Origin: an uncultured Planctomycetia bacterium | Lineage (GTDB): Bacteria > Omnitrophota > Gorgyraeia > 2-02-FULL-51-18 | Assembly: GCA_964606485.1 (NCBI GenBank) | Contig: CAZSGP010000003.1 | Span: 130,481 to 194,480 of the forward strand | Reading direction: 5' to 3' | DNA: 64,000 bases | Shown: piece after piece, positions 58-33,881 of the stretch | How positions within the stretch are numbered: the stretch's first letter is position 1 | Layout of the letters: each line of letters opens with the position of its first letter | Translations under genes and position numbers: made by a program | The notes under the pieces: model-generated | What the model saw: only the letters and a program-made list of their open reading frames with translations | What the model was told of the DNA's origin: nothing | Database searches by the model: none

Positions 58-558
58 TTAACCGCAGGTCATGCAGGCGCTGAGCGGAGTGTTGCTTCTT
101 GCGCTGACCGGATAGTTTTTGGCTTGCCACGCTTGAAAACCATTTTCCATAGCACGCGAATATTTGTAACCTAATTTTTTAAGTTTAAATACTAAAACGG
201 CGCTGGCCTGACAGCCATCGCTGCAATAAGTTACTATTTCCACGTCTTTCGGATACATTTTCATTGCCTGCTCAAGAAATGCGTCGCTCTCCGGGAGTTC
301 TTTTAAGCGCCCCTGCCGAAAAAGTTCTTCTTTTTCATAATATTCTGGTGCGTAGGGAAGGAGTGCGCCCGGAATGTGCCCCTCATAAAAACTTTTACTG
401 CTACGGGCGTCGAACAGAACAAAACGAACGTTGTTCAGTTGTTTGGTGTGAACAGTTTCCATAGAGACTAGCTCGTTCTCATAAAGACCTGCCCATTTCG
501 GCTGACGAGGCACCGCTGCTCCGGCATCCCCTAAAAACAGGGAAGCCGTGAAGAGCAT
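58..558 (-). CDS. Rhodanese-domain sulfurtransferase
   Basis: Rhodanese fold with a catalytic Cys loop, 'CSDGCQASAV'. The N-terminus is hydrophobic. Confidence 0.6.
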   Translation of the reverse strand: MLFTASLFLGDAGAAVPRQPKWAGLYENELVSMETVHTKQLNNVRFVLFDARSSKSFYEGHIPGALLPYAPEYYEKEELFRQGRLKELPESDAFLEQAMKMYPKDVEIVTYCSDGCQASAVLVFKLKKLGYKYSRAMENGFQAWQAKNYPVSARSNTPLSACMTCG

Positions 559-584
559 GAGCAGGGTGACAGATTTTAAAATAA

Positions 585-1865
585 CTACCGAACCTCAATA
601 ACTGCTTCGGGCTGAGAGTTCGCGTTGGCTACAAACGAATCGCTAGATTGATCACAGTCGCTGCCCGATGCATCCTTAACCGTGAGCACAACCCGGTAGT
701 TGCCGGGTTTTACGTAAGCATGCTCAGTCTTGATGCCTTCGGCGGACGTCCCATCACCAAAATCCCAGTGATAGTTTAAGTCGGATCCCGTTGACTTGGA
801 ACCGTCAAAAGACGTGTTCCTCCCGATGCAGCAAACGAGGTTTTCGCCCGCATTTGCGATTGGCGATTCGTAAACCCTCACGGTGGTTTTATCGGTGGCC
901 ACGGAACAGCTTGAGTCTTGGCCATTGTCTGCAGTCACCGTAACCGTATAATCCCCGCCCTTGGAGTAGGAATGGGTAGCGCTCGAGCCACCCTCTGAAA
1001 CAGCTCCGTCACCAAAATCCCAGCGGTATTTTGCGTTGCCGGTGCCGTTGGCATCAAAACGAATCGATTTGTTCGCGCAGATAGAGTTTCTAGTCTGCGT
1101 AAGCTTGATAGTGACTTTGTCTGTGATTTGCGCTTGTGTCGAAGCGGATGCGACCGAACACTCTGTCTTTTTCCCGTCATCCACGATCAGATGAACGCGA
1201 TAGTTTCCTGCCTTTTGATAAGCGTGGGATATTTGCACACCCTCACCCTTTTGGCCGTCCCCGAAATCCCAGGTAAAGTTCGCGGGACCTGAAGCTGTGG
1301 ATCTGGAAGCGGAAAATAAAGCTTCTTCGCTCACACAAGCCTTGACGGGTGCGCCTGCGTCCGCAGTCGGAGGAAAATTGGAATACACTTTCGTGTTCGC
1401 AACCCCATTGCCGCAGATTTCTCCCGAGCTATCTCTTACCGTCAACACAGCGTTGTATTCGCCAGCTTTGTCGTAACAGTGCCTGGTGACAGCTTGGTCG
1501 CTTGTTTGTCCATCTCCAAAATCCCAAGTGTAAGTGAGTTTTTGCTTGTCCTGATCATAGGACTTGGTACCGTCAAAAGTAAAACAGTTGCATTTGCCCA
1601 TCGAAGTTTGTGGTTCTTTTCTGATGACGGGGGCAGGGGCTTCTTGGGTATTTCCGCCGTAATCAAACGGACTCGTATAAGATCCGCGGCCGGAATGCTT
1701 ATAGTAATTATGAGGGTCGTTCGAGTGGCTGCTTTTATTGGTGTAGCCGTTCCCAGTCTCATCTTGGCCCACTGTCGCTGCCGACGCGTTGGCCCCAAAA
1801 GAAATCATTATAGCAATGGCCGTTACACCCAACCCAACTCTCATACTTTTTTTAAAAATAATCAT
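585..1865 (-). CDS. Secreted protein with four PKD-domain repeats
   Basis: Four repeats of the PKD signature 'W[DH]FGDG', for example 'YTWDFGDGQTS' and 'YHWDFGDGTSAEG'. An N-terminal signal peptide is present. Confidence 0.7.
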   Translation of the reverse strand: MIIFKKSMRVGLGVTAIAIMISFGANASAATVGQDETGNGYTNKSSHSNDPHNYYKHSGRGSYTSPFDYGGNTQEAPAPVIRKEPQTSMGKCNCFTFDGTKSYDQDKQKLTYTWDFGDGQTSDQAVTRHCYDKAGEYNAVLTVRDSSGEICGNGVANTKVYSNFPPTADAGAPVKACVSEEALFSASRSTASGPANFTWDFGDGQKGEGVQISHAYQKAGNYRVHLIVDDGKKTECSVASASTQAQITDKVTIKLTQTRNSICANKSIRFDANGTGNAKYRWDFGDGAVSEGGSSATHSYSKGGDYTVTVTADNGQDSSCSVATDKTTVRVYESPIANAGENLVCCIGRNTSFDGSKSTGSDLNYHWDFGDGTSAEGIKTEHAYVKPGNYRVVLTVKDASGSDCDQSSDSFVANANSQPEAVIEVR

Positions 1866-1981
1866 ACGAACCTCCCGTGGTCAAAAAAATATTTAAATAC
1901 TGTGCGTCCAAGATAACAGGTCATGCTTTGCCGCTAAATAAGGGGAATTACTATTTTTTTTATAGGGGCGACGCCTTATAT

Positions 1982-2007
1982 ATGCTTCCGGGATGCAGAC
2001 AGGGTTC
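1982..2007. repeat. Repeat family A, copy 1 (consensus 'ATGCTTCCGGGATGCATACTGGGTTC')
   Basis: 26/29 match to the copies at 3149, 4655 and 5487. It sits just upstream of the first cassette-like gene. Confidence 0.7.
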
Positions 2008-2038
2008 TGGTAGAATGGTCTGATCAACAGGAGACGCA

Positions 2039-2566
2039 ATGTTTAAAAAATTACTATTGAGTGTAATCACAGTTTTGATTTTGGTTGTAGCTTATGCAGC
2101 AACGAAGCCTTCGGAGTACATGGTGTTTCGGGAAGTTTCTATCAATGCACCAGCCGAAAAGATTTTTACACTGATCAACAATTCCCGTGAAACCGAGCGG
2201 TGGATGCCTTGGGCCGAGACCGATCCAAAAATGAAGATGAGCTATTCTGGTCCGGAGTCGGGAGTCGGATCGAAAGCCTCCTGGGAGAGTCCTGGGCAGA
2301 TGGGTGTCGGATCGTCGACGATTTCTGAAAGCGCTCCGAATCAGTCCGTGAAGTACAGTCTCGAATACACAAAGCCTTTTCAAATGAAACAGACAGCTGA
2401 GATATCGATTACCCCTTCAGGCGGCAAGAACGTTGTGCGTTGGTCGGTGTGGGGTCACAATAAATTATTCTGCCGTGTGGTTTGCCTATTTATGGATATG
2501 GATAAGATGGTGGGTGGAAGTTTTGAGCAGGGGTTGAATAAGCTTAAAGTTATTGCGGAGGGATAG
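2039..2566 (+). CDS. SRPBCC (polyketide cyclase/START-like) family protein with an N-terminal transmembrane helix
   Basis: Size and sequence pattern ('INAPAEKIF...W..W') fit the SRPBCC fold. The match is weak. Confidence 0.4.
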
Positions 2567-2567
2567 A

Positions 2568-2990
2568 ATGAACAATATGCTCAAAGAGTTTAGAGATTTT
2601 GCCGTCAAAGGGAACGTGATCGACATGGCGGTGGGTGTGATCATCGGCGCGTCGTTTGGAAAAATCGTAACATCGCTCGTGTCCGATGTGCTAATGCCTC
2701 CGATTGGCCGGATTGTCGGCGGGGCGGATTTTTCAAATTATTTTTTGCTTTTAGGCGAAGGTTCTTTTACGACGCCGGAAGCTGCCAAGGCTGCGGGTGT
2801 GGCGACGCTAAACTACGGCGTGTTCATTAATAATATTATCAATTTTTTAATCGTCGCTTTTTGCGTTTTTATGATGGTCAAGGCAATCAATATGGCCAAA
2901 AAGAAAGAAGCCGAAGCGCCAAAGCCCGCTCCGGTGACACCGCCGGATGTGCTGTTGTTACAGGAAATCCGAGATTTATTGAAAAAATAA
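2568..2990 (+). CDS. mscL: Large-conductance mechanosensitive channel MscL
   Basis: The N-terminus '[31 protein letters not shown]' is near-canonical for MscL. A GGAGGG ribosome-binding site precedes the ATG at 2568. Confidence 0.9.
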
Positions 2991-3098
2991 TCCTTCAAGA
3001 TCACAAATTGTGACCAGTTCGCTTAATTCATTTTTCGTCAGTTGAAACAAAAAATCAGATGGAAAGCGGCCGCTATTTCTTTTAACTGCTTGGTTTAT

Positions 3099-3148
3099 TC
3101 CTCCCACTACACAAGACGTCAGACCCTTCGATTTTTACCAAAAATATT
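3099..3148. repeat. Repeat family D, copy 1 (50 bp)
   Basis: 49/50 identical to 5367..5416. At that second copy the reverse complement supplies the GGGAGG ribosome-binding site and 5'UTR of the ORF6N gene. Here no ORF follows, so it is an orphan copy. Confidence 0.8.
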
Positions 3149-3182
3149 GATTTTGTATGCTTCCGGGATGCATACTGGGTTC
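3149..3182. repeat. Repeat family A, copy 2 (34 bp 'GATTTTGTATGCTTCCGGGATGCATACTGGGTTC')
   Basis: Identical to 5487..5520. It is followed by the near-palindrome 'CAGATCCGGGATCTG'. Confidence 0.85.
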
Positions 3183-3247
3183 TAATTCAGATCCGGGATC
3201 TGAACTGGGTTTTGGTTTACCTATCACCACCTCAGGGCTGAAATTTT

Positions 3248-3436
3248 ATGGAAGTAGTACTTCTTATAGCGCTTTGCGTATTAGGATTGTACTTATTTTT
3301 TCTGCCCTCGATAATTGCTTATAACAAACAAAAGAAGAGGGCGGGTATGATTTTCTTGCTCAATTTTTTTGTTGGAGCAACAGGCGTTGGCTGGGTGGTT
3401 CTTCTAATTTGGTCTTGCGGAAACGATAGCAGCTGA
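3248..3436 (+). CDS. Superinfection-immunity-like small membrane protein (Imm_superinfect-like)
   Basis: 62 aa with two transmembrane helices. The motif 'AYNKQKKRAGMIFLLNFFVGATGVGWVVLLIWS' matches the Imm family consensus (A..R.H.N..IF.LN...G.TGIGW..ALIW). Confidence 0.6.
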   Translation: MEVVLLIALCVLGLYLFFLPSIIAYNKQKKRAGMIFLLNFFVGATGVGWVVLLIWSCGNDSS

Positions 3437-3518
3437 TTGGTGATTACGATATTTTTTAAGTTGTGTGTACCTGGACATCGGGAATATCCGATCCAGACTT
3501 GATGGAGAAAAATGCAGA

Positions 3519-3884
3519 ATGTCTAAATCTGTAACGACATATTGGAATCCGTTGATGCCGGATAAAGCGTCTTCCTGGACGCCCGTTAAGGGGCTTGAGG
3601 GAATTGCTGAAGAGTTGACCCTGAGCATGGATTCCGAATCTGGCGAGTATACCCGCTTAACTCGCTTTCTCCCTGGAGCCGATACCACTTCCTTTGGTGG
3701 AAAAACCCACAATTATCCTGAAGAAGTTTTTGTTGTGAGTGGGCGATTGTTTGACGTGGCTTTCGGCAAATGGCTTGAACAGGGACACTACGCTAGTCGT
3801 CCTCCCGGTGAAATCCACGGACCATTTAGGACGGATATTGGTTGTGTGGTTTTGGAAGTTTCTTTTCCGGGCAGGAAAGACTAA
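3519..3884 (+). CDS. Cupin-domain protein (ChrR-like cupin)
   Basis: A small beta-barrel-type sequence with a GGAGA ribosome-binding site before the ATG at 3519. The family assignment is tentative. Confidence 0.4.
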   Translation: MSKSVTTYWNPLMPDKASSWTPVKGLEGIAEELTLSMDSESGEYTRLTRFLPGADTTSFGGKTHNYPEEVFVVSGRLFDVAFGKWLEQGHYASRPPGEIHGPFRTDIGCVVLEVSFPGRKD

Positions 3885-3914
3885 GGGAATCAGGCGACCT
3901 GATATTTAATTCAG

Positions 3915-3940
3915 CAATTAAGTTATGTGTCCCTGGAATT
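3915..3940. repeat. Repeat family C, copy 1 ('AATTAAGTTATGTGTCCCTGGAATT')
   Basis: Recurs at 4754, 7095 and 7911. Its reverse complement resembles family A (TTCC[A]GGGA.CATA), so A and C behave as imperfect inverted partners. Confidence 0.8.
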
Positions 3941-4066
3941 CCCGGACGTGGTCCGGTAAAAACGGTAAAATGAGAAAATGGTAAAAAGGCAAACCGTAAG
4001 TATTGCTATTGGTAGCGGGCTCAGGTATACTTATTGTAGTTACAAATATGACTACAGGAGATACAC

Positions 4067-4354
4067 ATGACTTTAGCGACGGAGCTTCTTAGAGCCAGAC
4101 ATGTTGGGGTGAGGGATTTAAAAGCGCATCTGTCAGAAAGAATTAAGACCCGAAAGCCGCTCATTGTCACTGAGCATGGGGAGCCTAAACAGGTCATAAT
4201 TCCTTATGACGTGATTGTTGGAATCGCAGAAGTGCTGCAGGAGCTAGATGATAAGGAGCTCGTTAAAGCAGTGCGGCTTTCCCGCGCAGCCACAAAAAAA
4301 GGGAATGGCATTCCTGTAGAAATACTTTTTAACAAGATGAGATCTAAAAGGTAA
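4067..4354 (+). CDS. Type II antitoxin, Phd/YefM family
   Basis: 95 aa. The N-terminus ('VGVRDLKAHLSERI...PLIVTEHGEPKQVIIPYD') is Phd-like. It lies immediately upstream of a RelE-like toxin. Confidence 0.7.
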   Translation: MTLATELLRARHVGVRDLKAHLSERIKTRKPLIVTEHGEPKQVIIPYDVIVGIAEVLQELDDKELVKAVRLSRAATKKGNGIPVEILFNKMRSKR

Positions 4355-4357
4355 ATC

Positions 4358-4651
4358 TTGAACTACCGGGTTATTTTTGCTCATCCATCGATTAAAAGAA
4401 ATTTTGAAAAAACCCTCCTAACCGCTTCAGCGGAGCTTCGAGATGCAATCGTGCGCAGCGTCGTCAATTTGTCGAATAATCCACGGCCCCATGGGGTCAT
4501 AAAAATAAAACCCCCTTTGGATATTTATCATTCTTTGGCCGGATACCGTATTCGCATTCAAAACTACAGAGTGTTCTACGATATTGATGAAGAAAGAAAA
4601 ACTGTGTCAGTGATTGCTTTAAGAAGGCGCAATGAAGGCACTTATAAATAA
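4358..4651 (+). CDS. Type II toxin, RelE/ParE family
   Basis: 97 aa, overlapping or abutting the antitoxin. The C-terminus 'YRIRIQNYRVFYDIDEERKTVSVIALRRR' is typical of RelE/ParE. It probably starts with TTG. Confidence 0.7.
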   Translation: MNYRVIFAHPSIKRNFEKTLLTASAELRDAIVRSVVNLSNNPRPHGVIKIKPPLDIYHSLAGYRIRIQNYRVFYDIDEERKTVSVIALRRRNEGTYK

Positions 4652-4654
4652 CCG

Positions 4655-4682
4655 CTTGCTTCCGGGATGCATACTGGGTTCC
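4655..4682. repeat. Repeat family A, copy 3
   Basis: Starts 4 nt after the RelE stop codon. Together with the hairpin at 4697-4733 and C copy 2 it makes a compact ~126-bp element. Confidence 0.8.
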
Positions 4683-4696
4683 AATTCGGGTGCACG

Positions 4697-4733
4697 CAGA
4701 TCCCGGATCTGGCCTTTGAAGATCCGGGATCTT
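4697..4733. repeat. Perfect 13-bp inverted repeat hairpin (AGATCCCGGATCT-N9-AGATCCGGGATCT)
   Basis: Read directly from the sequence. It forms the centre of the A-C element. Confidence 0.85.
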
Positions 4734-4753
4734 CACGAGGTCGGTGTGGCCCG

Positions 4754-4780
4754 CTAAATTAAGTGTGTGTCCCCGGAATT
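4754..4780. repeat. Repeat family C, copy 2 (variant 'AATTAAGTGTGTGTCCCCGGAATT')
   Basis: ~22/25 match to the other C copies. Confidence 0.75.
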
Positions 4781-4832
4781 TCTGCGGAATTTCACGGAAT
4801 TTCAAAATCATCGCAGAGGCTTGAACCCATAA

Positions 4833-5360
4833 TTAGATCGCATGAAACCCGATTGACCTCTTAGGTTTTGGAGCGGGCGTTTCTAGCAGTTCCCGAATCG
4901 CTTCAAAAACTATCTTAAACTGCTTATCATGTTTTTCGTATTTTTGCTCAAGCTCTTCAATTTTTTGTCGAATTAGTTCATTGCTTGAGATCATTTCCCT
5001 TAACTTAGTAAACGTGCGCATAATTTGAATGTTGACTTGAATCGCGCGTCTACTATTTAAAACCGAAGACAACATTAGGATGCCGTGTTCGGTAAAAGCG
5101 TGTGGCAGGTATCTCTGACCGCCCCATCTTGAGGTTCCAATTTGGAACCTCAAGATTTCAGCCTCATCCTTAGAAAGCTTAAACATGAAATCCGCAGGAA
5201 ACCGGTCACGGTTTCGAGCTACAGCCTTATTTAGTTCCTTGGTTCTGACTCCATAAAGCTCAGCCAATTCCTTGTCGAGCATCACTTTCTTACCCCTGAT
5301 GATGTAGATTTTATTTTCCACAGCAACACCTGAAATTGGTCCAAATACCTGCTTAGTCAT
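4833..5360 (-). CDS. ORF6N-domain (KilA-N/antirepressor-like) protein
   Basis: The block 'IRGKKVMLDKELAELYGVRTKELNKAVARNRDRFPADFMF...RYLPHAFTEHGILMLSSVLNSRRAIQVNIQIMRTF' is a strong ORF6N signature. The ATG at 5358-5360 is preceded by GGGAGG, which lies inside repeat D. Confidence 0.85.
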   Translation of the reverse strand: MTKQVFGPISGVAVENKIYIIRGKKVMLDKELAELYGVRTKELNKAVARNRDRFPADFMFKLSKDEAEILRFQIGTSRWGGQRYLPHAFTEHGILMLSSVLNSRRAIQVNIQIMRTFTKLREMISSNELIRQKIEELEQKYEKHDKQFKIVFEAIRELLETPAPKPKRSIGFHAI

Positions 5361-5366
5361 AAATAA

Positions 5367-5416
5367 TCCTCCCACTACACAAGACGTCAGACCCCTCGAT
5401 TTTTACCAAAAATATT
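5367..5416. repeat. Repeat family D, copy 2
   Basis: Direct copy of 3099..3148. It contains the ORF6N ribosome-binding site and leader on the minus strand. Confidence 0.8.
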
Positions 5417-5486
5417 TTCAACATTTTTTAAACTCTTAACGTTTTGAGAGGGGAAGATGAGTTGGTGCACCTCAATCTCGGTAGTT

Positions 5487-5520
5487 GATTTTGTATGCTT
5501 CCGGGATGCATACTGGGTTC
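5487..5520. repeat. Repeat family A, copy 4
   Basis: 34/34 identical to 3149..3182. Confidence 0.85.
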
Positions 5521-5522
5521 AC

Positions 5523-5590
5523 GTGGTCCGGTCTACTCGGCCTTGCGGTCAGAGGAGCAAGTAGTCAGTTGGAGACTTGACCCCTTATTT
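5523..5590. repeat. Repeat family B, copy 1 (68 bp)
   Basis: 67/68 identical to 6857..6924. It contains an internal hairpin (CTACTCG...CAAGTAG). Confidence 0.9.
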
Positions 5591-5622
5591 ATTTGTATTT
5601 GCAGCATGAAAAAGGAGATAAA

Positions 5623-6012
5623 TTGAAAAAAACTATACCGTTTATACTAGTTATATTTGTTTGCCGGATGGGATGGGCGGAAAGTATCGTTTTTGAAGGT
5701 GCGCCGGATATCAAGGGTGTAAATACTCTGCAGGATGTATTTAATGAGCCGGTCAATGATGAGAACAAGAAAACTTCACGCCTAGTAATAACCAAGGAGA
5801 ATGGCCAATATATTTGGTTCTCTAGAGAAAAAAATAAGCTTCGATTTTATAAAGATGATAATTTTATATATTTTGTTCGGGAGGATAGACCGGATTATAT
5901 AAAAATTTCAAAGCCGCCCCAATCGGAAGGAAAATATATTTATATGGAACATATGTCCGATGGTATGAAGACGCTCACTTATTGGGGGAAATCCGATAAA
6001 TTAGAATTATAG
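5623..6012 (+). CDS. Hypothetical secreted protein (~129 aa)
   Basis: TTG start with an AAAGGAG ribosome-binding site 5 nt upstream. It has an N-terminal signal-like hydrophobic segment. No recognisable domain. Confidence 0.45.
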   Translation: MKKTIPFILVIFVCRMGWAESIVFEGAPDIKGVNTLQDVFNEPVNDENKKTSRLVITKENGQYIWFSREKNKLRFYKDDNFIYFVREDRPDYIKISKPPQSEGKYIYMEHMSDGMKTLTYWGKSDKLEL

Positions 6013-6091
6013 GCAGCGCAACGGGCAAGAAGTGGTTTATGTAAAACTCTTAAGAGAAGGGAGGTAAGGTCGAGCAAATCGACATAGTTTT

Positions 6092-6733
6092 ATGTCTCAA
6101 GAATATTTCGAAAAAATCAACGAAGCTCTTGAAATTCAGAAAAAATATTCAGCGCTAAAAATACCGGTTTTTGATCAGATTGGTTCTCAAAGCGCTTTAA
6201 GTCCCAATTTTTGGATTAAAGGACAAGCCCAGAACTACATTTTTGCGAGCACGCATTTATCTGGGCAGATTATCGAGGCTCTCCAAAAAGCACATCTTCA
6301 ACTTGCAGTTGTAGGAAGCAGAACGCTTTTTGAAATGGCAGTAAATGCGACTTATATTTACAATCATCCAAAAAAAAGAAAAAGACTTTCTCCAATTCAA
6401 ATGAGAGAAGTTTGTAAAAAAATTGTTTGGTTGGCAAATAAAAGGCGAGGACATGTAAATCATTCCAAAATCGAAGGAACTATCAAAAGTCGATTAGAAT
6501 CGATGGGAATGGGATCTTCATATAGAACTACCTACAGAGTTATGAGCGACTGGGCGCACTTACAATCACGGGCAATTCAGATTTCTGCAGATCCACAAAA
6601 GGCCACGAAATTTGGCATACAAATAGCAGAAGTTACCTTACGAGGCCTCCACAACACTTTCGATTCGATATGCACATATTTCAAGTACGCGCTTGATCCG
6701 GCGTTGGAGCAAGAGGTGATTGGCTTTAAGTAA
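6092..6733 (+). CDS. Hypothetical protein (213 aa), mostly helical by composition
   Basis: Clean ORF in the cassette region with no family recognised. The segment 'KRRGHVNH' loosely fits an R-x4-6-H (HEPN-like) motif, but this is very tentative. Confidence 0.4.
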   Translation: MSQEYFEKINEALEIQKKYSALKIPVFDQIGSQSALSPNFWIKGQAQNYIFASTHLSGQIIEALQKAHLQLAVVGSRTLFEMAVNATYIYNHPKKRKRLSPIQMREVCKKIVWLANKRRGHVNHSKIEGTIKSRLESMGMGSSYRTTYRVMSDWAHLQSRAIQISADPQKATKFGIQIAEVTLRGLHNTFDSICTYFKYALDPALEQEVIGFK

Positions 6734-6856
6734 GACGCTAGGTAACACCGATATCGAAAAGCGGGCGGCTTATAGAGCATATTTGATGCAACCTAGGCGA
6801 AATGAAATGCTACTGGAGATGAAAAGCTAACGTGTCCCCAAAAGGGCGTTTCGGAG

Positions 6857-6924
6857 GTGGTCCGGTCTACTCGGCCTTGCGGTCAGCGGAGCAAGTAGTC
6901 AGTTGGAGACTTGACCCCTTATTT
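6857..6924. repeat. Repeat family B, copy 2
   Basis: Direct repeat of 5523..5590. The two B copies bracket the two-gene module 5623-6733. Confidence 0.9.
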
Positions 6925-7094
6925 TCAAAAAACGAGCTGCAAAAATTGGCGCAAATGGTGTGTTGCTAACAACCACAGGAACTCAGACATCTGCGATGGC
7001 TGGTGGTTATGGGACTGGCGCGATGTGGGTTATACCAGTAAATGCTAAAGTTGTTAAGGGGACGGCAATTTTTGTAAGTGAGGAGTAGTGGTTT

Positions 7095-7120
7095 AAATTA
7101 AGTTATGTGTCCCTGGAATT
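7095..7120. repeat. Repeat family C, copy 3
   Basis: 25/25 match to copy 1. Confidence 0.85.
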
Positions 7121-7140
7121 ATGTGCCGAGGTTGACGAGG

Positions 7141-7809
7141 ATGTCAAATGTCAAAGACCAAACTTCCCCTTATTTTATGAACAAATGCATTAGGTTTGCG
7201 GTCGGAGCAAAAACAGGCCTAAAATCCTCAATATATAACATCACTGTCTGTAAAAATGATATTTACATCTCTGCAGGTATATTAACGAGAGAGACAAAGG
7301 TTAGCATTCATGAAAGCGGTTGTGGGCAATGGTCATACAGATCTGAGGTTTGGAAGGATCGGAAAAAGCCAAATAATGAAAGACATATAGTAAAATGGAA
7401 CTCCCTAATACCTACCGATCTAAAAGCAGTAAATGTTCTTCGAATACGAATACCACATACAACATTAACTCAATATTCTGCACCCTCATCAGAAGATAAG
7501 GTTAAATGGGTTTCCGGGTTACTGTCAGGAACATATCAATTTGATTTATGTCTAACACCACCATCTCAAACAGATCCAGCGCGAGACAGAAGTGACTTAC
7601 CACATGAAGTACTAGGTACATTACAATTGAATGACAAGCGGTGGTTGGTTGTATTTTACCAAGGAACCCCATCGTTAAGTATCCCGAAAGAAGATATCTT
7701 ACGAGAAATAGGAAATAAGGATATTAACCTTCAGGGAACGGGGGGTATGTGTCTTTTTGGTGCTAGTGATGATGGTGTCCCTGTAATGATTGAATGTGTA
7801 TTAAAATAA
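7141..7809 (+). CDS. Hypothetical protein (~222 aa)
   Basis: ORF with no recognisable domain, bracketed by C copies 3 and 4. Confidence 0.4.
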   Translation: MSNVKDQTSPYFMNKCIRFAVGAKTGLKSSIYNITVCKNDIYISAGILTRETKVSIHESGCGQWSYRSEVWKDRKKPNNERHIVKWNSLIPTDLKAVNVLRIRIPHTTLTQYSAPSSEDKVKWVSGLLSGTYQFDLCLTPPSQTDPARDRSDLPHEVLGTLQLNDKRWLVVFYQGTPSLSIPKEDILREIGNKDINLQGTGGMCLFGASDDGVPVMIECVLK

Positions 7810-7910
7810 GAGTTACACACATGACCTACACCAACAAAACACAACTAAAAAATAATGACCAAACCCCCTTTTAAATTCAGCAAAATCAGGGGACGCAATA
7901 CTCAATTCGA

Positions 7911-7936
7911 TAATTAAGTTATCTATTCCCCGGAAT
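7911..7936. repeat. Repeat family C, copy 4 (variant)
   Basis: The core 'TAATTAAGTTAT...CCCCGGAAT' matches. This copy is more diverged. Confidence 0.6.
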
Positions 7937-7980
7937 CCACGAAATTCATATTTGCACAGTACACGTTAATATGGTATTAT

Positions 7981-8277
7981 TTGACCGTGATCATCAGCTT
8001 TAAAGACCAGGCAACGGAAGACATTTTTAATGGAATATCTTCCAAGAAGGCTCTGAAGTTTCCTGTGGTTGTTTGGCAGGTGGGGAGTCGGAAGCTGGAC
8101 ATGATTAACGCGGCGCACGAACTAAAAGATCTTATGATTCCGCCCGGAAACCGCCTGGAAGCATTAAAAGGTGACTTGAAGGGATACCACAGCATTCGTA
8201 TTAATGAAAAATACAGGATTGTGTTTAAGTGGCTTGAGGCCAATGCATCTGAAGTCGAAATTAAAGATTACCACTAG
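7981..8277 (+). CDS. higB: HigB toxin (RelE/ParE superfamily, 'plasmid maintenance system killer')
   Basis: 98 aa. It is the HigB-type toxin of a HigB/HigA module and is encoded upstream of its antitoxin, as in higBA. The start codon (TTG or GTG) is uncertain. Confidence 0.7.
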   Translation: MTVIISFKDQATEDIFNGISSKKALKFPVVVWQVGSRKLDMINAAHELKDLMIPPGNRLEALKGDLKGYHSIRINEKYRIVFKWLEANASEVEIKDYH

Positions 8278-8285
8278 GGGGTAAA

Positions 8286-8558
8286 ATGATACCAACCAAT
8301 CGAAAACCAAATCATCCGGGGGAAATTCTATTAAAAGAGTTTCTGCAGCCGATGGGCTTAACTCAATTAGAGCTGGCAAAAAAAATGCATGTGCCCGTTC
8401 AAAGAGTCAACACGCTTATCAATGAAAAAAGAGGTGTGACTGCGGAGACGGCTATTTTGTTGAGCGAAATATTGAAAACCTCGGCAGAATTCTGGATGAA
8501 TTTGCAGGCAACATATGATCTTTATGAGGCGCGGCACCATCTCAAGATAGCGGCTTAA
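8286..8558 (+). CDS. higA: HigA antitoxin (XRE-family HTH)
   Basis: The N-terminus 'HPGEILLKEFLQPMGLTQLELAKKMHVPVQRVNTLINEKRGVTAETAILLSEIL' is canonical for HigA/VapI. Confidence 0.85.
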   Translation: MIPTNRKPNHPGEILLKEFLQPMGLTQLELAKKMHVPVQRVNTLINEKRGVTAETAILLSEILKTSAEFWMNLQATYDLYEARHHLKIAA

Positions 8559-8562
8559 CCCC

Positions 8563-9978
8563 ATGCGTCACCACAGCCGCTCGCTGCTAATCACCTTAAC
8601 CACCGTTTTGCTTTTGACTTCGCGAGTTTTTGCCCTCGAACCCGAACCCACCACCAAATCCCTTTCGCCTCGGGCGTATTTTAAAACCGCGTTGAATGAA
8701 ATCAATAAAGCCCAAGCTTCGGTTGATCTGTGCATGTATCTGATTAGTTTTTACCCCAAAGAAACAGACTCGCAGGTTTATCAGCTCATGAGCGCGCTTG
8801 CTAAGGCCAAAGCGCGTGGCGTCGCGGTGCGGGTGATTCTGGACCAAGATCCCACTCAAAAAAATTTGGCAGCGGCACAGTTTTTGAAACAGGCGGGTGT
8901 CCCGGTGTTTTGGGACTCGGAACTTGTGACCACGCACACCAAAGCGCTTGTGATGGACGGCGAAACGGTGCTGGTGGGTTCAACGAATTGGTCGGAGAGC
9001 GCATTTTCGCGCAACAATGAATCAAATGCGTTCATTCGGTCGAAAGAGTTTGCCGAAGACTTGCTTGCGGAATTTGCCAAAATTAAAACGGTGGAGGCGG
9101 CGGATCCGGATGGACTCGTGGTGAAGATTCCGGTGCATTTTTTGAGCGCGGACATCATGGGTGAGATGGTGAACGAATCCGACGACCGCGCGATGGACAC
9201 GTACTTGTGGCTTTTGAAGGAAGGAAAAAGTGAGCTCGATTATGAAAAACTCGCCGAGGCACTGGGACTTTCAACGGAGGAGCCCATCGGTTACCGCAGG
9301 CAGATCAACAAGACGCTTGAGAAGCTTGAGCAAAAATATTTATTAATCCAAGTGACGACCGAATACGGCAAGCCGGCTCAAGTGAAAATGGACAAACCAA
9401 ACGGCGGGGATTTTAGTGTGCCGCTCGATTACTGGACGCTTGGCTGGGACCGCGAGCTCTCATTTCCAGCGAAGGTGATGCTTCTTCTGAATCGGTATTA
9501 TTCCCAAGATTCGTCCAATTACCCCAAGTGGCGCAAGTCGGTCGCCGGGATTGCCGAGGAGCGGGGGATTTCTCAAGATTTTGTGAGCACGGGCACGATG
9601 AGTTTGCGGCGTTGGAATCTTATTGAAGTGCGTTATGACTCGCTATACGCGGATGATGCGCCGCGCGTTGCGAATGAATACACACCGAAGCCGCTTTATG
9701 ATCGTAAAGAGGAAGAGGTGAAGCTGAGGGCGCTGGTCACTCTCTATGGAAAAGAGGGGGTCGAGCGCGCCCGCGCTGCGGCGAATGCGGTTTATGAAGA
9801 TCACGACATGGATGGAGTGGAAAAGCTCGTCCAACTTGAGAATCGTTACAGTCTAAACATTGTGCAGGCGGCGCTTAAAGTCATCCTTGAGAAAAGCCCC
9901 GACAATCCGAAGCGCTCGCTGGCGTACCTGATCCGCACCATTGAGCGAATGGGCGAAAAAGGATTTCTCGCCGAATAA
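8563..9978 (+). CDS. Secreted phospholipase-D-like (single HKD motif) protein with a ~280-aa C-terminal region of unknown function
   Basis: N-terminal signal peptide. One HKD motif, 'HTKALVMDGETVLVGSTNWSESAF'. The C-terminal half has no family I can recognise. Confidence 0.65.
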   Translation: MRHHSRSLLITLTTVLLLTSRVFALEPEPTTKSLSPRAYFKTALNEINKAQASVDLCMYLISFYPKETDSQVYQLMSALAKAKARGVAVRVILDQDPTQKNLAAAQFLKQAGVPVFWDSELVTTHTKALVMDGETVLVGSTNWSESAFSRNNESNAFIRSKEFAEDLLAEFAKIKTVEAADPDGLVVKIPVHFLSADIMGEMVNESDDRAMDTYLWLLKEGKSELDYEKLAEALGLSTEEPIGYRRQINKTLEKLEQKYLLIQVTTEYGKPAQVKMDKPNGGDFSVPLDYWTLGWDRELSFPAKVMLLLNRYYSQDSSNYPKWRKSVAGIAEERGISQDFVSTGTMSLRRWNLIEVRYDSLYADDAPRVANEYTPKPLYDRKEEEVKLRALVTLYGKEGVERARAAANAVYEDHDMDGVEKLVQLENRYSLNIVQAALKVILEKSPDNPKRSLAYLIRTIERMGEKGFLAE

Positions 9979-9990
9979 AATCAGATTGCA

Positions 9991-10275
9991 GCGAGTCCTG
10001 TCCTCGGAGCTTCAGATGCGCGTCGAAGATATCCTGCTCGTTACGCTCCGCTGTTTGCGGGGGTACGGCGGATCAGACCTCTTGGTTTGAATGGGAAGCG
10101 CCTGCGCTAAAAAGACAATCCCGGCCTCGAGGTTCTAGAACTTCGCTACGCGCTTTACACTGCGCTGGATATTCTCCGCCGCGCATTCGGATGACCGATT
10201 AGCGGCGGGTGGCCGAGGCGAGATGAGCTCGTGCGCAACTGCACACGAGATCGCTCGCCGAAGGACAGGACCCGC
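9991..10275. repeat. GC-rich non-coding element bounded by 17-bp imperfect inverted repeats (GCGAGTCCTGTCCTCGG / CCGAAGGACAGGACCCGC)
   Basis: The terminal inverted repeats match 15/17 about 250 bp apart. There is an internal hairpin, 'CTCGTGCGCAACTGCACACGAG'. Local GC is higher than in the flanks. No plausible ORF is present. Confidence 0.5.
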
Positions 10276-10356
10276 CGCGTGTTTGGACGCATGAATTTGT
10301 TGGATTAAGCGGAATGCTCTGATAGAATAGCTCGCCAAAAGGGGAACTGCTTACAT

Positions 10357-10857
10357 ATGAAAAAATATCTTTTTGGCATCGTTTTTTCCGCACTACTTCT
10401 GCACTCCACTAGCGCGTTCGCGCTCGACAAAAAAACAATCGAAGCAAAGGGTGAAATTGTTTCAACGAGTCCAATCAGCTCGTCTGTCACAATTAAACAC
10501 GGCGTGATCAAAGGATTTTCTGACGCCGGGGAAACTAATTTCGTTGTCGCCTCAAAAGATCTTTTAAATAATTTGTCGCGTTTCGATCTTGTGAATTTTA
10601 CGATCGTGGACGACAAGGGCAATGCGCAGATTGAAAAAATTTCGAAGACCGGTGTCGCGGAGCCTGAGAAGAATGGCCTCGCGATCGGTGAAGCCGCGCG
10701 TGACGTTTTGAAAGCCACCAGTGAAACGGCGAGTTTTGTGACAAGCCCCATTCCTCCGGCGCAGGGCTTGGTCAATGACACGGTTGGTGCGGTGGCGAAT
10801 GGAACAGGCGAAGCGGTGCAAGACGCCTCGGTTCCGAATACGAAAAACAAATTTTAA
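10357..10857 (+). CDS. Secreted OB-fold protein, CusF-like (the metal ligands are not conserved)
   Basis: Signal peptide. The pattern 'GEIVS...VTIKHGVIKGF....NFVV.....L..L..FDLVNFTIV' resembles the CusF/DUF fold. The match is weak. Confidence 0.35.
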   Translation: MKKYLFGIVFSALLLHSTSAFALDKKTIEAKGEIVSTSPISSSVTIKHGVIKGFSDAGETNFVVASKDLLNNLSRFDLVNFTIVDDKGNAQIEKISKTGVAEPEKNGLAIGEAARDVLKATSETASFVTSPIPPAQGLVNDTVGAVANGTGEAVQDASVPNTKNKF

Positions 10858-10920
10858 AACTTAGAAAAGATCCTTCGGCGAAAAAACGCCTCAGGATGAC
10901 AGGGAAAAAAGGAGATTAGA

Positions 10921-12084
10921 ATGGGTTTTTGGCTGGGTCGCGGTAGAAAAGCACGGCGTTCGTACGGATTTGACGAGATCGCTCTCGTTCCGGGAAATGT
11001 AACCATTAATCCCAACGAAGTTGATACGTCCTGGGAAATTGGAAAGAAAAAATTTCGCGTTCCGATTTTAGCCAGCGCCATGGACGGCGTGGTCGACGTG
11101 AATTTTGCGGTCAAGATGTCGAAGCTTGGCGGCATTGCGGTGCTGAACCTCGAAGGCGTGCAGACGCGTTACGATAACCCAGGCGAAGTGCTAAAGAAAA
11201 TTGCTGCGGCGACCCCTGAAGAATCGGGTCCGCTCTTGCAAGCCATTTACAAACAACCCATCAAGCCAAAACTCATCGCAAAGCGCATTAAAGAGATCAA
11301 GCAGCGCGGCGGAACAGCGGTTGTGTCGAGCATTCCACAACGCGCAGAAGAGTTTGGAAAAATTGCGCAAGGCGCGGGCTGCGACATTTTTGTGGTGCAA
11401 TCCACGGTGTCGACGGTGAAACACATCTCGAGTGAATACAAGACGATTGATTTCTTTAAATTCTGCCAGAAGATGATGAAGATTCCGGTGATCATTGGAA
11501 ACTGTGTAACGTACCAAACCACACTGGAGCTTATGGAAACCGGTGTCTCGGCGCTTTTGATTGGTGTGGGGCCCGGAGCTGCGTGCACGTCTCGCGGCGT
11601 TCTCGGACTGGGTGTGCCGCAAGTCACGGCCATTTGTGACGCGGCAGCGGCGCGCGATGCGTACTTTAAACGCACGAAGAAATACATTCCGATTATTGGC
11701 GATGGCGGAATGTCGTCCGGTGGAGACATTTGTAAGGCATTTGCTTGCGGGTCGGACGCAGTGATGGTGGGTTCTGCTTTTGCGCGCGCCAAAGAAGCGC
11801 CGGGCGGCGGCTACCACTGGGGCATGGCGACTCCGCACGCGAACTTGCCGCGCGGGACTCGGATTCGGGTGAGCACGACGGGAACCTTAGAAGAAATTTT
11901 GTACGGACCGGCCAAACTCGATGATGGATCGCAAAACCTCATGGGCGCTCTGCAAACCTGCATGGGCAATGTCGGTGCGATGACGGTGAAAGAATTGCAA
12001 CTTGTGGATCTTGTGATTGCGCCGTCGATCAAGACTGAAGGAAAAGTGTTTCAACAAGCCCAACGCGTCGGAATGGGCAAGTAA
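10921..12084 (+). CDS. IMP dehydrogenase-family protein lacking the CBS pair (GuaB3-like)
   Basis: A TIM-barrel IMPDH/GMP-reductase-like sequence ('FDEIALVPG', 'ASAMDGV', 'IGDGGMSSGGDI'). At 387 aa there is no CBS insert. Confidence 0.7.
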   Translation: MGFWLGRGRKARRSYGFDEIALVPGNVTINPNEVDTSWEIGKKKFRVPILASAMDGVVDVNFAVKMSKLGGIAVLNLEGVQTRYDNPGEVLKKIAAATPEESGPLLQAIYKQPIKPKLIAKRIKEIKQRGGTAVVSSIPQRAEEFGKIAQGAGCDIFVVQSTVSTVKHISSEYKTIDFFKFCQKMMKIPVIIGNCVTYQTTLELMETGVSALLIGVGPGAACTSRGVLGLGVPQVTAICDAAAARDAYFKRTKKYIPIIGDGGMSSGGDICKAFACGSDAVMVGSAFARAKEAPGGGYHWGMATPHANLPRGTRIRVSTTGTLEEILYGPAKLDDGSQNLMGALQTCMGNVGAMTVKELQLVDLVIAPSIKTEGKVFQQAQRVGMGK

Positions 12085-12095
12085 ACGGTATTTGT

Positions 12096-13763
12096 GTGGG
12101 TAATTTAAGCACGCTCGAAATTGCCCACAAAGCCAAGCCTCTTCGGATTGCGGATATTGCCACGCAAAATGGCATCCGCGCCGAAGAGGTGGAGCTTTAC
12201 GGTAGTAGCAAAGCCAAGATCTCCCTAAAAGTTCTCGAAAGACTCTCCTCCAAGCCAAACGGCAAACTCATTTGCGTCACCGGGATGACTCCCACCAAAG
12301 AAGGTGACGGAAAAACCACAACGAGCATTGGGCTCACCCAGGGACTCGGTAAGCTTAAGAAAAAAGTATTTCTCTGCTTAAGACAACCGTCGCTTGCTCC
12401 GATTTTTGGATTTAAGGGTGGAGCGACCGGTGGCGGCTACTCGCAAGTGGTGCCGATGGAAGAAATTAATCTTCATTTTACCGGCGACATTCACGCCATT
12501 CAGACTGCGCACAATTTGCTCGCGGCCATCATGGAAAATCACCTTCATTTTGGAAACAAGCTCGGCATTGACCCTGAGCAAATTTTTTGGCGCCGCTCGA
12601 TGGACATGAGCGACCGGCAGCTTCGGGAAATTGTCGTCGGCGTGTCCAAGGCGAGTAAATTTCAAAAATACAAAACCGGCTTTGACATTACGGCGGCGTC
12701 GGAAGTGATGGCGGCGTTGTCGTTATCGGATTCGATTAAAACTTTAAAGCAGAAGCTTGGAAAAATTGCGGTGGCGATGACGAAAGACGGAAAACTGGTT
12801 ACGGCTAAAGATTTGAAAGCGTCGGGAGCGATGGCGCTTTTGTTAAAAGAGGCGGTGAAGCCGAATTTGGTTCAGACTTTAGAAGGACAACCGGTGTTCA
12901 TGCACATGGGGCCGTTTGCAAACGTGTCGCACGGCAACAATAGTCTTATTTCGACGCAGATGGCGCTCAAACTGGCTAATTACGTCGTGACCGAGTCCGG
13001 TTTCGCGACGGATCTCGGAATGGAAAAACTTTTTGATCTCGTGCTTCGCGGAAGCGATGTGAAGCCGAGTGTGGTGGTGCTGGTGGTGTCGGTGAAGGCG
13101 CTAAAGTCTCACGCCGGAGAAAACGCAGCGGGGAAAGCACAAGACGCGTTTCGCGAGGGGTTTGCGAATGTGGCGCGGCACATTCAAAACATTCGCCGCT
13201 TTGGAGTGGAGCCGGTGATTGCGATTAACCGCTTTCCGCAGGACACCGACGAAGAAATTAAAGCTGTGCGCAATCATTTTGCGATGCAAAACGTCGAGTG
13301 CGCAGTGTCGGAAGGCGTGCGGCTCGGTGGCGAAGGATGTGTGGAGCTTGCCGAGAAAGTCTTGAAAGTGATTACCGAGAAGCCGGCCAATTTTAAACCG
13401 TTGTATGAGCTGTCGCTGAGTCCCGAAGAAAAAATTTTAAAGATCGCTCAAGAATTGTATGGCGCCTCGTCGGTGACGTATACCGAGGAAGCTAAAAAAG
13501 ATTTGGAAAAAATTCATGCGCTGAAACTGGACGAGCTGCCAGTGTGTGTCGCGAAAACGCCGTACTCGTTTTCGGACGATCTTTTGCTGAAGGGCGCTCC
13601 AACGAATTTCAAAATCAAAGTGCGGCGCGTGCATGCGTACACGGGCGCCGGATTTCTCGTGGTGCTCGCTGGAAAAATGATGCTGATGCCGGGCTTGCCC
13701 GAGCAGCCAACTCTTGAACACATGGATCTTACTGACGACGGCCGCGCTGTAGGCCTATTCTAA
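12096..13763 (+). CDS. fhs: Formate--tetrahydrofolate ligase
   Basis: The signature 'PTKEGDGKTTTSIGL' is present. Full-length at ~555 aa. Confidence 0.9.
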   Translation: MGNLSTLEIAHKAKPLRIADIATQNGIRAEEVELYGSSKAKISLKVLERLSSKPNGKLICVTGMTPTKEGDGKTTTSIGLTQGLGKLKKKVFLCLRQPSLAPIFGFKGGATGGGYSQVVPMEEINLHFTGDIHAIQTAHNLLAAIMENHLHFGNKLGIDPEQIFWRRSMDMSDRQLREIVVGVSKASKFQKYKTGFDITAASEVMAALSLSDSIKTLKQKLGKIAVAMTKDGKLVTAKDLKASGAMALLLKEAVKPNLVQTLEGQPVFMHMGPFANVSHGNNSLISTQMALKLANYVVTESGFATDLGMEKLFDLVLRGSDVKPSVVVLVVSVKALKSHAGENAAGKAQDAFREGFANVARHIQNIRRFGVEPVIAINRFPQDTDEEIKAVRNHFAMQNVECAVSEGVRLGGEGCVELAEKVLKVITEKPANFKPLYELSLSPEEKILKIAQELYGASSVTYTEEAKKDLEKIHALKLDELPVCVAKTPYSFSDDLLLKGAPTNFKIKVRRVHAYTGAGFLVVLAGKMMLMPGLPEQPTLEHMDLTDDGRAVGLF

Positions 13764-14321
13764 TTGCTGCTTGCCTTTCATAAACCTTACGGCGTTTTGT
13801 CTCAATTCACCAAAGAAGCGCCGGATCATCACACGCTTGCGGAATTTGGATTTCCTAAACACGTTTATCCGATTGGAAGGCTCGACTGGGACAGCGAAGG
13901 CTTGCTTTTACTCAGCAACGAACGCGACTGGACCGAGTGGCTACTCAATCCTAAAAACCGGCATGAGCGGGTGTATCACGCGCAAGTGGACCGGGTGGTG
14001 ACGCCGGAAGCGATTGCCCAGCTCCAAAAAGGGGTGTTGATTGACGGCGAAATGACGCGGCCTGCCAAAGCTAAAATTTTAGAGAACCCCGGTTACCCCG
14101 AGCGCGTGCCGCCGGTCCGGTTTCGCAAAACCGTTCCAACGAGTTGGCTCGAGCTCAAACTCACCGAAGGAAAAAATAGACAAGTGCGGCGCATGACGGC
14201 GGCGGTGGGTTTTCCGACGCTGAGACTTTTGCGTGTGTCGATTGGGACGATTCCGCTCGGGGATCTGGCGGCAGGGAAATGGCGGGAGCTTTCGGAAAAA
14301 GAACAGTTATCTTTACGATGA
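13764..14321 (+). CDS. rRNA pseudouridine synthase, RsuA/RluE-type
   Basis: Motifs 'LLAFHKPYGVLSQFT' and 'PIGRLDWDSEGLLLLSNE' with the catalytic Asp. Starts with TTG right after the fhs stop. Confidence 0.75.
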   Translation: MLLAFHKPYGVLSQFTKEAPDHHTLAEFGFPKHVYPIGRLDWDSEGLLLLSNERDWTEWLLNPKNRHERVYHAQVDRVVTPEAIAQLQKGVLIDGEMTRPAKAKILENPGYPERVPPVRFRKTVPTSWLELKLTEGKNRQVRRMTAAVGFPTLRLLRVSIGTIPLGDLAAGKWRELSEKEQLSLR

Positions 14322-14378
14322 ACCAACCTCGCACTGTAGTTTTGTTCGATTATCACCACCTCCGGGGTGGTATTGGTT

Positions 14379-15137
14379 ATGACTAGGCTGCATACGCACC
14401 CAAATTTTTACATCGATACGGATTACCGTGTGCTTTTTGAAGATGATGCGCTGCTTGTGATCAATAAGCCAGCGCCGCTCGCGGTTCATCCGGTAGGCTC
14501 GTACGTTGAGCTGAATATTCACTCGCTTGTCAAAAAAGATCCGCGCTGGGAGGGGATATCCATGAAAATGGTGCACCGGCTCGATGCAGAAACGAGCGGC
14601 GTGCTGGTGATGGCTAAAACGTATGAGGCGGCGCGAAGCCTAGGAAAACAATTTTTAGCGGGAACGATTGAAAAAGAATACGAAGCGGTGGTGTTTGGGA
14701 CACCGAACCCTTCTGAAGGCTTGATTGATTTTCCGCTCGGCCATGACGAGAGCTCTGGATTTCAAAGTGTGCGCACGCATGATGCGGAAAATGGGGAGAA
14801 GGCACAAACTCAGTTTAAAGTTTTAAAATCGGGCGCGGAATATTCCAGAGTACTGCTCAAGCCTTTAACCGGACGCACGCATCAACTGCGCGTGCACATG
14901 GCGCTCATCGGACATCCGATTGTGGGGGATAAAATTTACATCGATTTGAAAATTTTTGCCAAATACGTGGTGGAAGGGTTAAACGACGAGATGATGGAGA
15001 GACTGAAGCTTAAGCGTTTGGCGTTGCACGCGGGGAAAATTACGTTTACACACCCGCATACGCGCGAACTTCTCAGTGTTAGCGCCCCACTTCCTAAAAT
15101 TTTAAGTGATTTTGTCGAGTTTTCGGGGCTTTCCTAG
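14379..15137 (+). CDS. RluA-family pseudouridine synthase
   Basis: Catalytic motif 'HRLDAETSGVLVMAKT' and 'GRTHQLRVHMA'. Confidence 0.8.
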   Translation: MTRLHTHPNFYIDTDYRVLFEDDALLVINKPAPLAVHPVGSYVELNIHSLVKKDPRWEGISMKMVHRLDAETSGVLVMAKTYEAARSLGKQFLAGTIEKEYEAVVFGTPNPSEGLIDFPLGHDESSGFQSVRTHDAENGEKAQTQFKVLKSGAEYSRVLLKPLTGRTHQLRVHMALIGHPIVGDKIYIDLKIFAKYVVEGLNDEMMERLKLKRLALHAGKITFTHPHTRELLSVSAPLPKILSDFVEFSGLS

Positions 15138-15244
15138 AGCGAAAATACCTGAGATAGCGCTCGCTTTTGAGAGCGGAAGCTGTTAGAATGCCCCCAACGC
15201 AATACAGGCTCTGTCGTTTTTAATGCAGTCAATAATTTTGAAAA

Positions 15245-15284
15245 CCGCGAATCCTAAACTAAAAGGGTTCGCGGATTTTTTTTG
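15245..15284 (+). terminator. Rho-independent terminator after the rluA-like gene
   Basis: Stem CCGCGAATCC/GGTTCGCGG followed by ATTTTTTTT. Confidence 0.6.
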
Positions 15285-15306
15285 TTTGGCTCACCCCGGA
15301 GATCAA

Positions 15307-33837: not shown

Positions 33838-33881
33838 TTAAGGTAGATTTGTTTAGATATATTTAAATTGTTGACTCGTTT

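Follow-up and report, generated by a model that had tools for sequence, protein, structure and literature searches.

A two-gene module between near-identical 68-bp direct repeats in an accessory island of an uncultured Planctomycetia bacterium

Organization of the locus

The stretch of DNA analysed here (64,000 nt, positions 130,481 to 194,480 of contig CAZSGP010000003.1; hereafter, the window) comes from an uncultured Planctomycetia bacterium that is placed in Omnitrophota by GTDB, and it carries a short module in which exactly two genes, referred to below as gene 1 and gene 2, stand between two almost identical copies of a 68-bp direct repeat, which we call repeat B. The module and the signals next to its genes are as follows.

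5523 to 5590, no strand assigned: repeat B, copy 1, lying directly 3' of a junction repeat of the surrounding island (D2, see below) and 32 nt 5' of the gene 1 TTG; 54% G+C
5611 to 5617, + strand: Shine-Dalgarno-like AAAGGAG, 5 nt 5' of the gene 1 TTG, read directly from the sequence
5623 to 6012, + strand: gene 1, 129 aa, TTG start, 35.6% G+C, orphan family
6069 to 6083, + strand: small hairpin (GTCGAGCAAATCGAC) with a T-rich tail just 5' of the gene 2 start, terminator-like by a consensus scan
6092 to 6733, + strand: gene 2, 213 aa, all-alpha product, 38.6% G+C, divergent DUF5677 (PF18928)
6857 to 6924, no strand assigned: repeat B, copy 2, 67/68 identical to copy 1 and 123 nt beyond the gene 2 stop

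The two copies of B differ at one position only (A at 5553 vs. C at 6887) and are 1334 bp apart from start to start. With a tolerance of up to three mismatches, the 64 kb contains each half of B two times and no more, while 100 dinucleotide-preserving shuffles of the sequence give an expectation of zero matches. The arrangement is also present in contigs from other assemblies, that is, ENA contig L017 equals 4726 to 5689 of the window at 100% identity and takes in D2 and B copy 1 as well as the beginning of gene 1, Logan contig L001 corresponds to 5561 to 6917, and Logan contig L018 begins at 6895. Since these contigs agree with the window, and break where k-mers become common to both copies, the arrangement of B is not an assembly artefact. 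A reading of the 1357-bp Logan contig as circular was dropped because its ends coincide exactly with the k-mers common to both B copies. Hence, the description given by the first-pass annotation of this DNA, i.e., 68-bp repeats with 67/68 identity flanking exactly two genes, is borne out by both the shuffle counts and the independent contigs.

With or without its flanks, B folds as RNA no better than shuffled sequences (z −0.4 to +0.2). As single-stranded DNA with flanks, it gave z values of −1.5, −2.2, 0.0 and 0.0, with three of the four strands no better than shuffles and the value of −2.2 belonging to the minus strand of copy 1. No terminal inverted repeats were seen in B when the sequence was read by eye, and a consensus scan placed neither a promoter nor a terminator in either copy. 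Up to E = 5, Rfam found nothing in the module or close to it (its sole match was at 522 to 577), and ARAGORN found no tRNA at B, the only tRNA called being a tRNA-Met at 33881. Collectively, Rfam, ARAGORN and the RNA and DNA folds provide no support for B as an RNA or tRNA fragment. Searches with the repeat itself were also negative: a 31-mer of B had no copy among 185,579 species genomes (the source genome is not among the searchable DNA collections), a 24-mer had none in IMG/VR, and the only open frame running through D2 and B, when translated, matched none of 5.8 billion proteins. The DNA of the module as a whole had no match among plasmids.

The two genes and their relatives

Besides itself, gene 1 has a single homologue among the 5.8 billion proteins, at 50% identity. 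This homologue begins with MKKTI and aligns at the TTG, which supports the proposed TTG start and, with it, the earlier assignment of the start to a TTG preceded by AAAGGAG. The N-terminus of the product is hydrophobic, ends in GWA and resembles a signal peptide, which is probably cleaved after GWA; the earlier view of gene 1 as encoding a small secreted protein is therefore favoured by this N-terminus, as judged by reading only. No significant family match was obtained in Pfam, NCBIfam, PADLOC or PHROGs (NCBIfam returned one weak, chance-level match), and the structure model, although beta-rich, is unreliable (pLDDT, the predicted local distance difference test, of 50) and too poor for a structure search.

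Neither a signal peptide nor a membrane segment can be seen in the sequence of the gene 2 product, which adds a new member to a rare branch of DUF5677, an uncharacterised family with neither a known function nor a solved structure. The product scored 25.9 bits against the Pfam model (E = 1.2e-05), i.e., below the gathering threshold of 27.1 bits, and it aligns to profile positions 116 to 156 only, the C-terminal part of the model; a precomputed collection annotation lists PF18928 for the identical protein and marks it 'faint' at the encoding contigs. An exhaustive HMMER search with gene 2 recovered 53 relatives among 1.84 billion representatives. In an alignment of 39 sequences, in which the window protein stands together with 38 of the 53, DUF5677 was matched by 35, with a best E of 4.7e-13, and L56, E81, Y88, H92, R134 and H156 are nearly invariant. 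It is the 25.9-bit score together with the matches of 35/39 sequences that identifies the gene 2 product as a divergent member of the family; a comparison by hhalign of the profile with one canonical DUF5677 member, represented by a single sequence, gave a probability of 6%. The protein also shares with the family its size (about 215 to 225 aa), single-domain organization and all-helical build, while its score just under the gathering value and the rarity of its branch (53 in 1.84 billion) set it apart. Two of the relatives are genome-resolved, both in metagenome-assembled genomes (MAGs) of Planctomycetota. Thus, the earlier statement that neither protein has a recognisable domain stands for gene 1 but not for gene 2.

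The AlphaFold2 model of the gene 2 product consists of ten helices and is of high confidence (mean pLDDT 92.3, predicted template modelling score 0.90), in full agreement with the helix-rich protein that had been described from the sequence. A Foldseek search of 350,542 PDB chains returned nothing better than E 0.08 and a template modelling (TM) score of 0.43, all hits being generic helical bundles, and the search of BFVD with the same model gave no match. Structure prediction, which the first-pass annotation had proposed as a check, has accordingly yielded a confident all-helical model with no counterpart in PDB or BFVD for one protein and an unreliable model for the other. A sequence-profile search of PDB with gene 2 gave nothing relevant, PADLOC, PHROGs and NCBIfam had no match for its product, and neither did plasmids or phages.

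It had also been speculated that gene 2 carries the Rx4-6H motif of HEPN RNases, based on the string KRRGHVNH, which corresponds to residues 117 to 124 of the product. In the nearest homologue, however, the equivalent string is KKR-KVNH, that is, Rx3H, so the Rx4-6H spacing is broken; R119 is not conserved among the ten closest relatives, and in the wider family K takes the place of H124. In the model, residues 117 to 130 form a coil between helices 101 to 116 and 131 to 137. The likeness to HEPN RNases amounts to a helical protein with one local string that fits the pattern in a single sequence and nothing else, whereas the motif is unconserved and in a loop, and Foldseek detected no similarity to the fold of solved HEPN proteins in PDB. 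An assignment of gene 2 as a HEPN RNase thus finds no support.

The genes surrounding the homologues provided an independent view of whether genes 1 and 2 belong together. On contig L004, an unrelated gene comes after the 50% homologue of gene 1, and the 50% homologue of gene 2 sits 5 nt after a gene for a trypsin-like (PDC-S45-like) protease (L003). Other gene 2 relatives are found after an Eco57I-type methylase and a PifA-like KAP NTPase (L015), with a RES-domain gene downstream (L007, the same Planctomycetales locus as L015), upstream of type I hsdM/hsdS (L008), in tandem with a second, canonical DUF5677 gene (L010), or alone, with queA-like and tgt-like genes on either side, where these two names rest on N-terminal sequences only (L012 to L014). 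In other words, the search for the same gene pair elsewhere, which had been suggested as a check, found the two genes occurring separately and with other neighbours, and the pair is conserved in none of the retrieved homologues (L003, L004, L007 to L015). These differing neighbourhoods speak against the two genes being an obligate toxin/immunity pair. The pattern would rather suit a solitary or loosely partnered gene of defence islands, as far as neighbourhoods can indicate. In the tandem of L010, the two genes overlap (2466 to 3152 and 3103 to 4029) and encode a 228-aa protein of the same branch as the window protein and a canonical 308-aa protein (E = 6.8e-20 to PF18928), which suggests that the DUF5677 family is able to act as paralogous pairs.

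The accessory island and its junction repeats

The module lies in an accessory island that differs from the remainder of the window in base composition and contains several families of short repeats at the junctions between its genes. The features of the island that matter here are as follows.

About 1976 to 8558, no strand assigned: accessory island, 42.3% G+C vs. 47.5% for the rest of the window
4652 to 4787, no strand assigned: contiguous D2...D1 element, an imperfect palindrome of about 124 to 136 bp between ParE and ORF6N, the only one of its kind
5496 to 5526, no strand assigned: junction repeat D2 (TGCTTCCGGGATGCATACTGGGTTC...), whose extension enters the first bases of B copy 1
6826 to 6848, no strand assigned: possible degenerate D1-like motif (GCTAACGTGTCCCCAAAAGGGCG) just 5' of B copy 2, seen by eye and weak
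6925 to 7095, no strand assigned: unique spacer of 171 nt from B copy 2 to D1, with only ORFs of 42 to 45 aa, whose coding is doubtful
7096 to 7120, no strand assigned: junction repeat D1 (AATTAAGTTATGTGTCCCTGGAATT), imperfect inverted partner of D2

The order of the genes in the island is SRPBCC and MscL, an ORF6N remnant, a superinfection-immunity-like protein of 62 aa, a cupin, Phd/ParE, ORF6N, the B module, a protein of 222 aa without assignment, and HigB/HigA; the presence of both Phd/ParE and HigB/HigA within 1976 to 8558 confirms the setting described earlier, i.e., an island rich in toxin-antitoxin (TA) modules. The 62-aa product (3248 to 3436) is a membrane protein of the phage 'immunity to superinfection' family (phrog_1039, E = 3.5e-15) and stands between D2 and D1, and for the 222-aa protein, which is encoded next after the B module (7141 to 7809, 38% G+C), Pfam, NCBIfam, PADLOC and PHROGs offered no match.

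The repeats D1, D2 and D6 are restricted, within the 64 kb, to the island. D2 has four copies (at 1983, 3158, 4657 and 5496) and D1 has five (at 3454, 3916, 4756, 7096 and 7912), and the region in which the two are contiguous (4650 to 4790) folds as single-stranded DNA far better than shuffles (z −4.0 and −3.3). Searches for D2 in JGI metagenomes and IMG/VR, and for D1 in IMG/VR, gave none. B is linked to these repeats in more than one way. A 12-mer (ACGTGGTCCGGT, 5519 to 5530), the last eight bases of which open B, also occurs after a D1/D2-like junction at 3948 to 3959, and, in diverged form, these bases also continue the D2 copy at 1983 (family D3, 78% over 46 nt). The degenerate motif in front of B copy 2 resembles, by eye, the junction at 3916 to 3959. 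The island further contains a segmental duplication (2976 to 3188 vs. 5364 to 5526), which comprises the truncated start of an ORF6N gene (2976 to 3107, minus strand), the 53-nt D6 upstream of it, and D2. The D6 copies are 96% identical (53 nt) and the D2 copies 100% identical (36 nt), and the downstream copy of the duplication has an additional 68 nt (5417 to 5484) between the blocks.

A comparable arrangement was observed elsewhere in the window. A 31-nt direct repeat (30/31 identical) is present at 24744 to 24774 and 26112 to 26142, with a spacing of 1368 bp. The first of these copies forms the 3' terminus of hemC together with the stop codon, which the second copy duplicates. The two copies enclose a CPBP/Rce1-like membrane protease (24781 to 25503) and a ParE-type TA pair (25603 to 26074), and no recombinase. 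This module parallels the B module, which brings to at least two the number of small accessory modules in this genome that lie between duplicated copies of a part of their target. Past the hemC module there is a small two-gene pair (26217 to 26713), and the next long ORF starts at 26723. In a different genome, the Planctomycetia MAG from which L008 derives, a repeat of about 83 nt (78% identical; 5208 to 5290, 6251 to 6333 and 7225 to 7256, with a 32-nt core present three times) separates consecutive genes with hydrophobic, signal-peptide-like N-termini, a further case of repeated junction sequences between small genes.

Two other observations concern the surroundings of the island. The frame of a 471-aa protein (8563 to 9978) opens 4 nt beyond HigA and may be part of the island; the protein has an N-terminus that, by reading, resembles a signal peptide, it carries a PLD-like nuclease domain related to the DrmC/NucT models, and its C-terminal ~290 aa have no significant family match. 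Further along, two adjacent ORFs (13764 to 14321 and 14367 to 15137) both match PseudoU_synth_2 (pseudouridine synthase) and could be either two paralogues or one split gene.

Discussion

The reading that we favour, and consider about as likely to be right as to be wrong, is that the B segment represents one imported cassette in a hypervariable patchwork island, placed between copies of a junction sequence by recombination and carrying two independent passenger genes. B is read here as a junction sequence of the island rather than as part of the genes, and the genes as imported cargo, because B has 54% G+C, as opposed to 35.6% and 38.6% for genes 1 and 2, and is tied to the D repeats. Under this hypothesis, an incoming segment of ~1.3 kb that carried one copy of B would have recombined with a resident B in a Campbell-type insertion, either by homologous recombination or through a recombinase encoded elsewhere; an equivalent unequal exchange between junctions would be another possible route. 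The insertion would be recent since the B copies are 67/68 identical, and a RecA-mediated loss of the module across the 68 bp, leaving a single B, would also be possible. Gene 1 would then be a passenger from an orphan family that encodes a small exported protein, and gene 2 a solitary DUF5677-family gene whose product, judging from the neighbourhoods of its relatives, may have a stand-alone or loosely partnered role in defence or stress. Consistent with this hypothesis, further segmental duplications are present in the island, one of them being that of ORF6N/D6/D2.

It is important to note that several observations weigh against this interpretation. No recombinase was found inside the module or among the 20 ORFs that were scanned against Pfam (58 to 16302), nor in the genes called in the 1.6 kb upstream of the window. 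The organism was recovered from two samples only, based on searches with the flanking proteins, and both have the same arrangement. The status of B as a junction repeat rests on two copies and a common 12-mer, and the defence role of gene 2 represents guilt by association, with PADLOC and PHROGs providing no match and with the relative in L012 to L014 standing alone next to the queA-like and tgt-like genes. DUF5677 has been reported to be enriched beside the serine recombinases that mark defence islands in Bacillota; the DUF5677 ORF tested in the same study was, however, not among the five that provided protection, with six phages used [bioRxiv 10.1101/2025.10.07.681051]. The earlier description of the locus as a discrete mobilisable cassette can be kept in part: the foreign G+C content and the discrete unit speak for it, whereas a reading of B as the dedicated end of a mobile element finds no support, the module being without a recombinase and B having no hairpin, no terminal inverted repeat and, in the collections searched, no further copy.

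Alternatively, the island might be an integron-type array, that is, a cluster of attC sites without an integron-integrase (CALIN), in which an unusual attC would be made of the D2...D1 palindromes, with B in a variable central position, and the two genes would be a single cassette moved by an IntI encoded elsewhere. We regard this as unlikely, albeit the most appealing of the alternatives. The gene content resembles that of chromosomal cassette arrays, with short, mostly co-oriented genes, TA pairs, a cupin, an SRPBCC protein and small proteins without assignment; most gene units are followed by the D1 motif, with GTTATGT or GTTGTGT (6/7 to GTTRRRY); D2 is an imperfect inverted counterpart of D1, and the two form a long DNA hairpin at 4652 to 4787 (z about −4); and the two genome-resolved relatives of gene 2 come from Planctomycetota MAGs, integrons and CALINs having been reported in Planctomycetes [PMC4889954]. 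Yet, a scan for the R''/R' and L boxes of attC sites, which are 50 to 150 bp long, gave no candidate on either strand of 1976 to 8558 (and, in the whole window, none on the + strand and four on the − strand), where the scan was a crude pattern of our own (AAC...GTT, at least 6/7 complementary, with L boxes) and not the covariance model of IntegronFinder. Further, the required AAC is TAC or GAC in D2, the folding of B does not exceed that of shuffles, the genes usually stand between D2 and D1 instead of each being followed by a compact site, and no integrase was detected among the ORFs scanned, including the 1.6 kb upstream. It is also quite improbable, in our view, that B is a functional cis-element (a promoter or leader for the downstream unit, or a terminator or insulator) that is required in both places and kept identical through selection or gene conversion, as opposed to a trace of recombination. 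Copy 1 is only 32 nt upstream of gene 1, the TTGACC within B resembles a −35 hexamer by reading, and the RNA of B can fold into a long, imperfect hairpin ahead of CCUUAUUU(U), by which copy 2 could terminate a two-gene transcript; nonetheless, the fold is no better than that of shuffled sequences (z −0.4 to +0.2), no promoter or terminator was picked up by the scan in either copy, Rfam was silent up to E = 5, and the same orientation at both positions is incompatible with a joint role as promoter and terminator.

The first-pass annotation had proposed a toxin/immunity or abortive-infection pair, in which a secreted component and a cytoplasmic HEPN-like RNase would move as a functional, B-bounded unit. 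The two genes are indeed adjacent, on the same strand and 79 nt apart in a TA-rich island, and the relatives of gene 2 occur in defence-type neighbourhoods, often overlapping or abutting the upstream gene. Nevertheless, the pairing is absent from all retrieved homologues, the Rx4-6H motif is unconserved and in a loop with no HEPN match at the structure level, and neither protein is matched by PADLOC, NCBIfam or PHROGs, which together make such a pair very unlikely. An even fainter chance is that D2 and D1 are the terminal inverted repeats of non-autonomous transposable cassettes, similar to a miniature inverted-repeat transposable element (MITE) or a mobile insertion cassette (MIC), with the B module as the cargo of the unit at 5496 to 7120. 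Three D2...D1 units can be delineated (3158 to 3478, with the 62-aa gene; 4657 to 4780, empty; and 5496 to 7120), the ends of which are imperfect inverted repeats of ~17 nt, but none of the three shows a target-site duplication by reading, the copies are confined to one 6-kb island as opposed to being dispersed in the 64 kb, no transposase was seen among the ORFs scanned, solo copies of D1 and D2 exist, and B would be left unexplained. Finally, a more far-reaching possibility is that the island is an integron-like cassette-capture array whose junction sites, formed by D2/D1 palindromes around B-type centres, would be non-canonical and served by a non-IntI recombinase encoded elsewhere, which would also be behind the hemC module. 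We consider this a long shot; if true, it would mean a genome that assembles 1.3-kb defence and TA modules by a mechanism so far undescribed.

Known systems resemble the B module in part. What defines a cis-mobilizable element (CIME) is that its att sites belong to a known integrative element, the integrase of which works in trans. As in CIMEs and Campbell-type insertions, a short accessory segment is enclosed here by near-identical direct repeats (67/68) in the absence of a recombinase, with the hemC module as a second case; what distinguishes the B module from CIMEs is that, apart from its direct repeats, it has no known cognate integrase, element or empty site. Integron cassettes and CALINs share with the island the short, mostly co-oriented genes rich in TA modules and proteins without assignment, the related imperfect palindromes and the low G+C content, and differ in the canonical R''/R' and L boxes, which were not found in the island, in B forming no hairpin, and in the integron integrase, which is absent from the scanned ORFs. 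Compared to MITEs and mobile insertion cassettes, B has no terminal inverted repeats, and the D2/D1 units are island-confined and without target duplications. That is, beyond its flanking direct repeats, the B module shows none of the features that define CIMEs or cassette arrays, and it requires no new kind of system.

The results have, to begin with, a corrective value, in that neither a HEPN toxin nor a toxin/immunity pair should be recorded at this locus. At the level of the protein family, a well-modelled, rare branch of DUF5677 with recurrent defence neighbours represents a concrete candidate for approaching the function of the family. At the level of the genome, at least two accessory modules of ~1.3 kb are bracketed by direct repeats and come without a recombinase, and if one mechanism explains both the B and the hemC modules, it would be worth following up.

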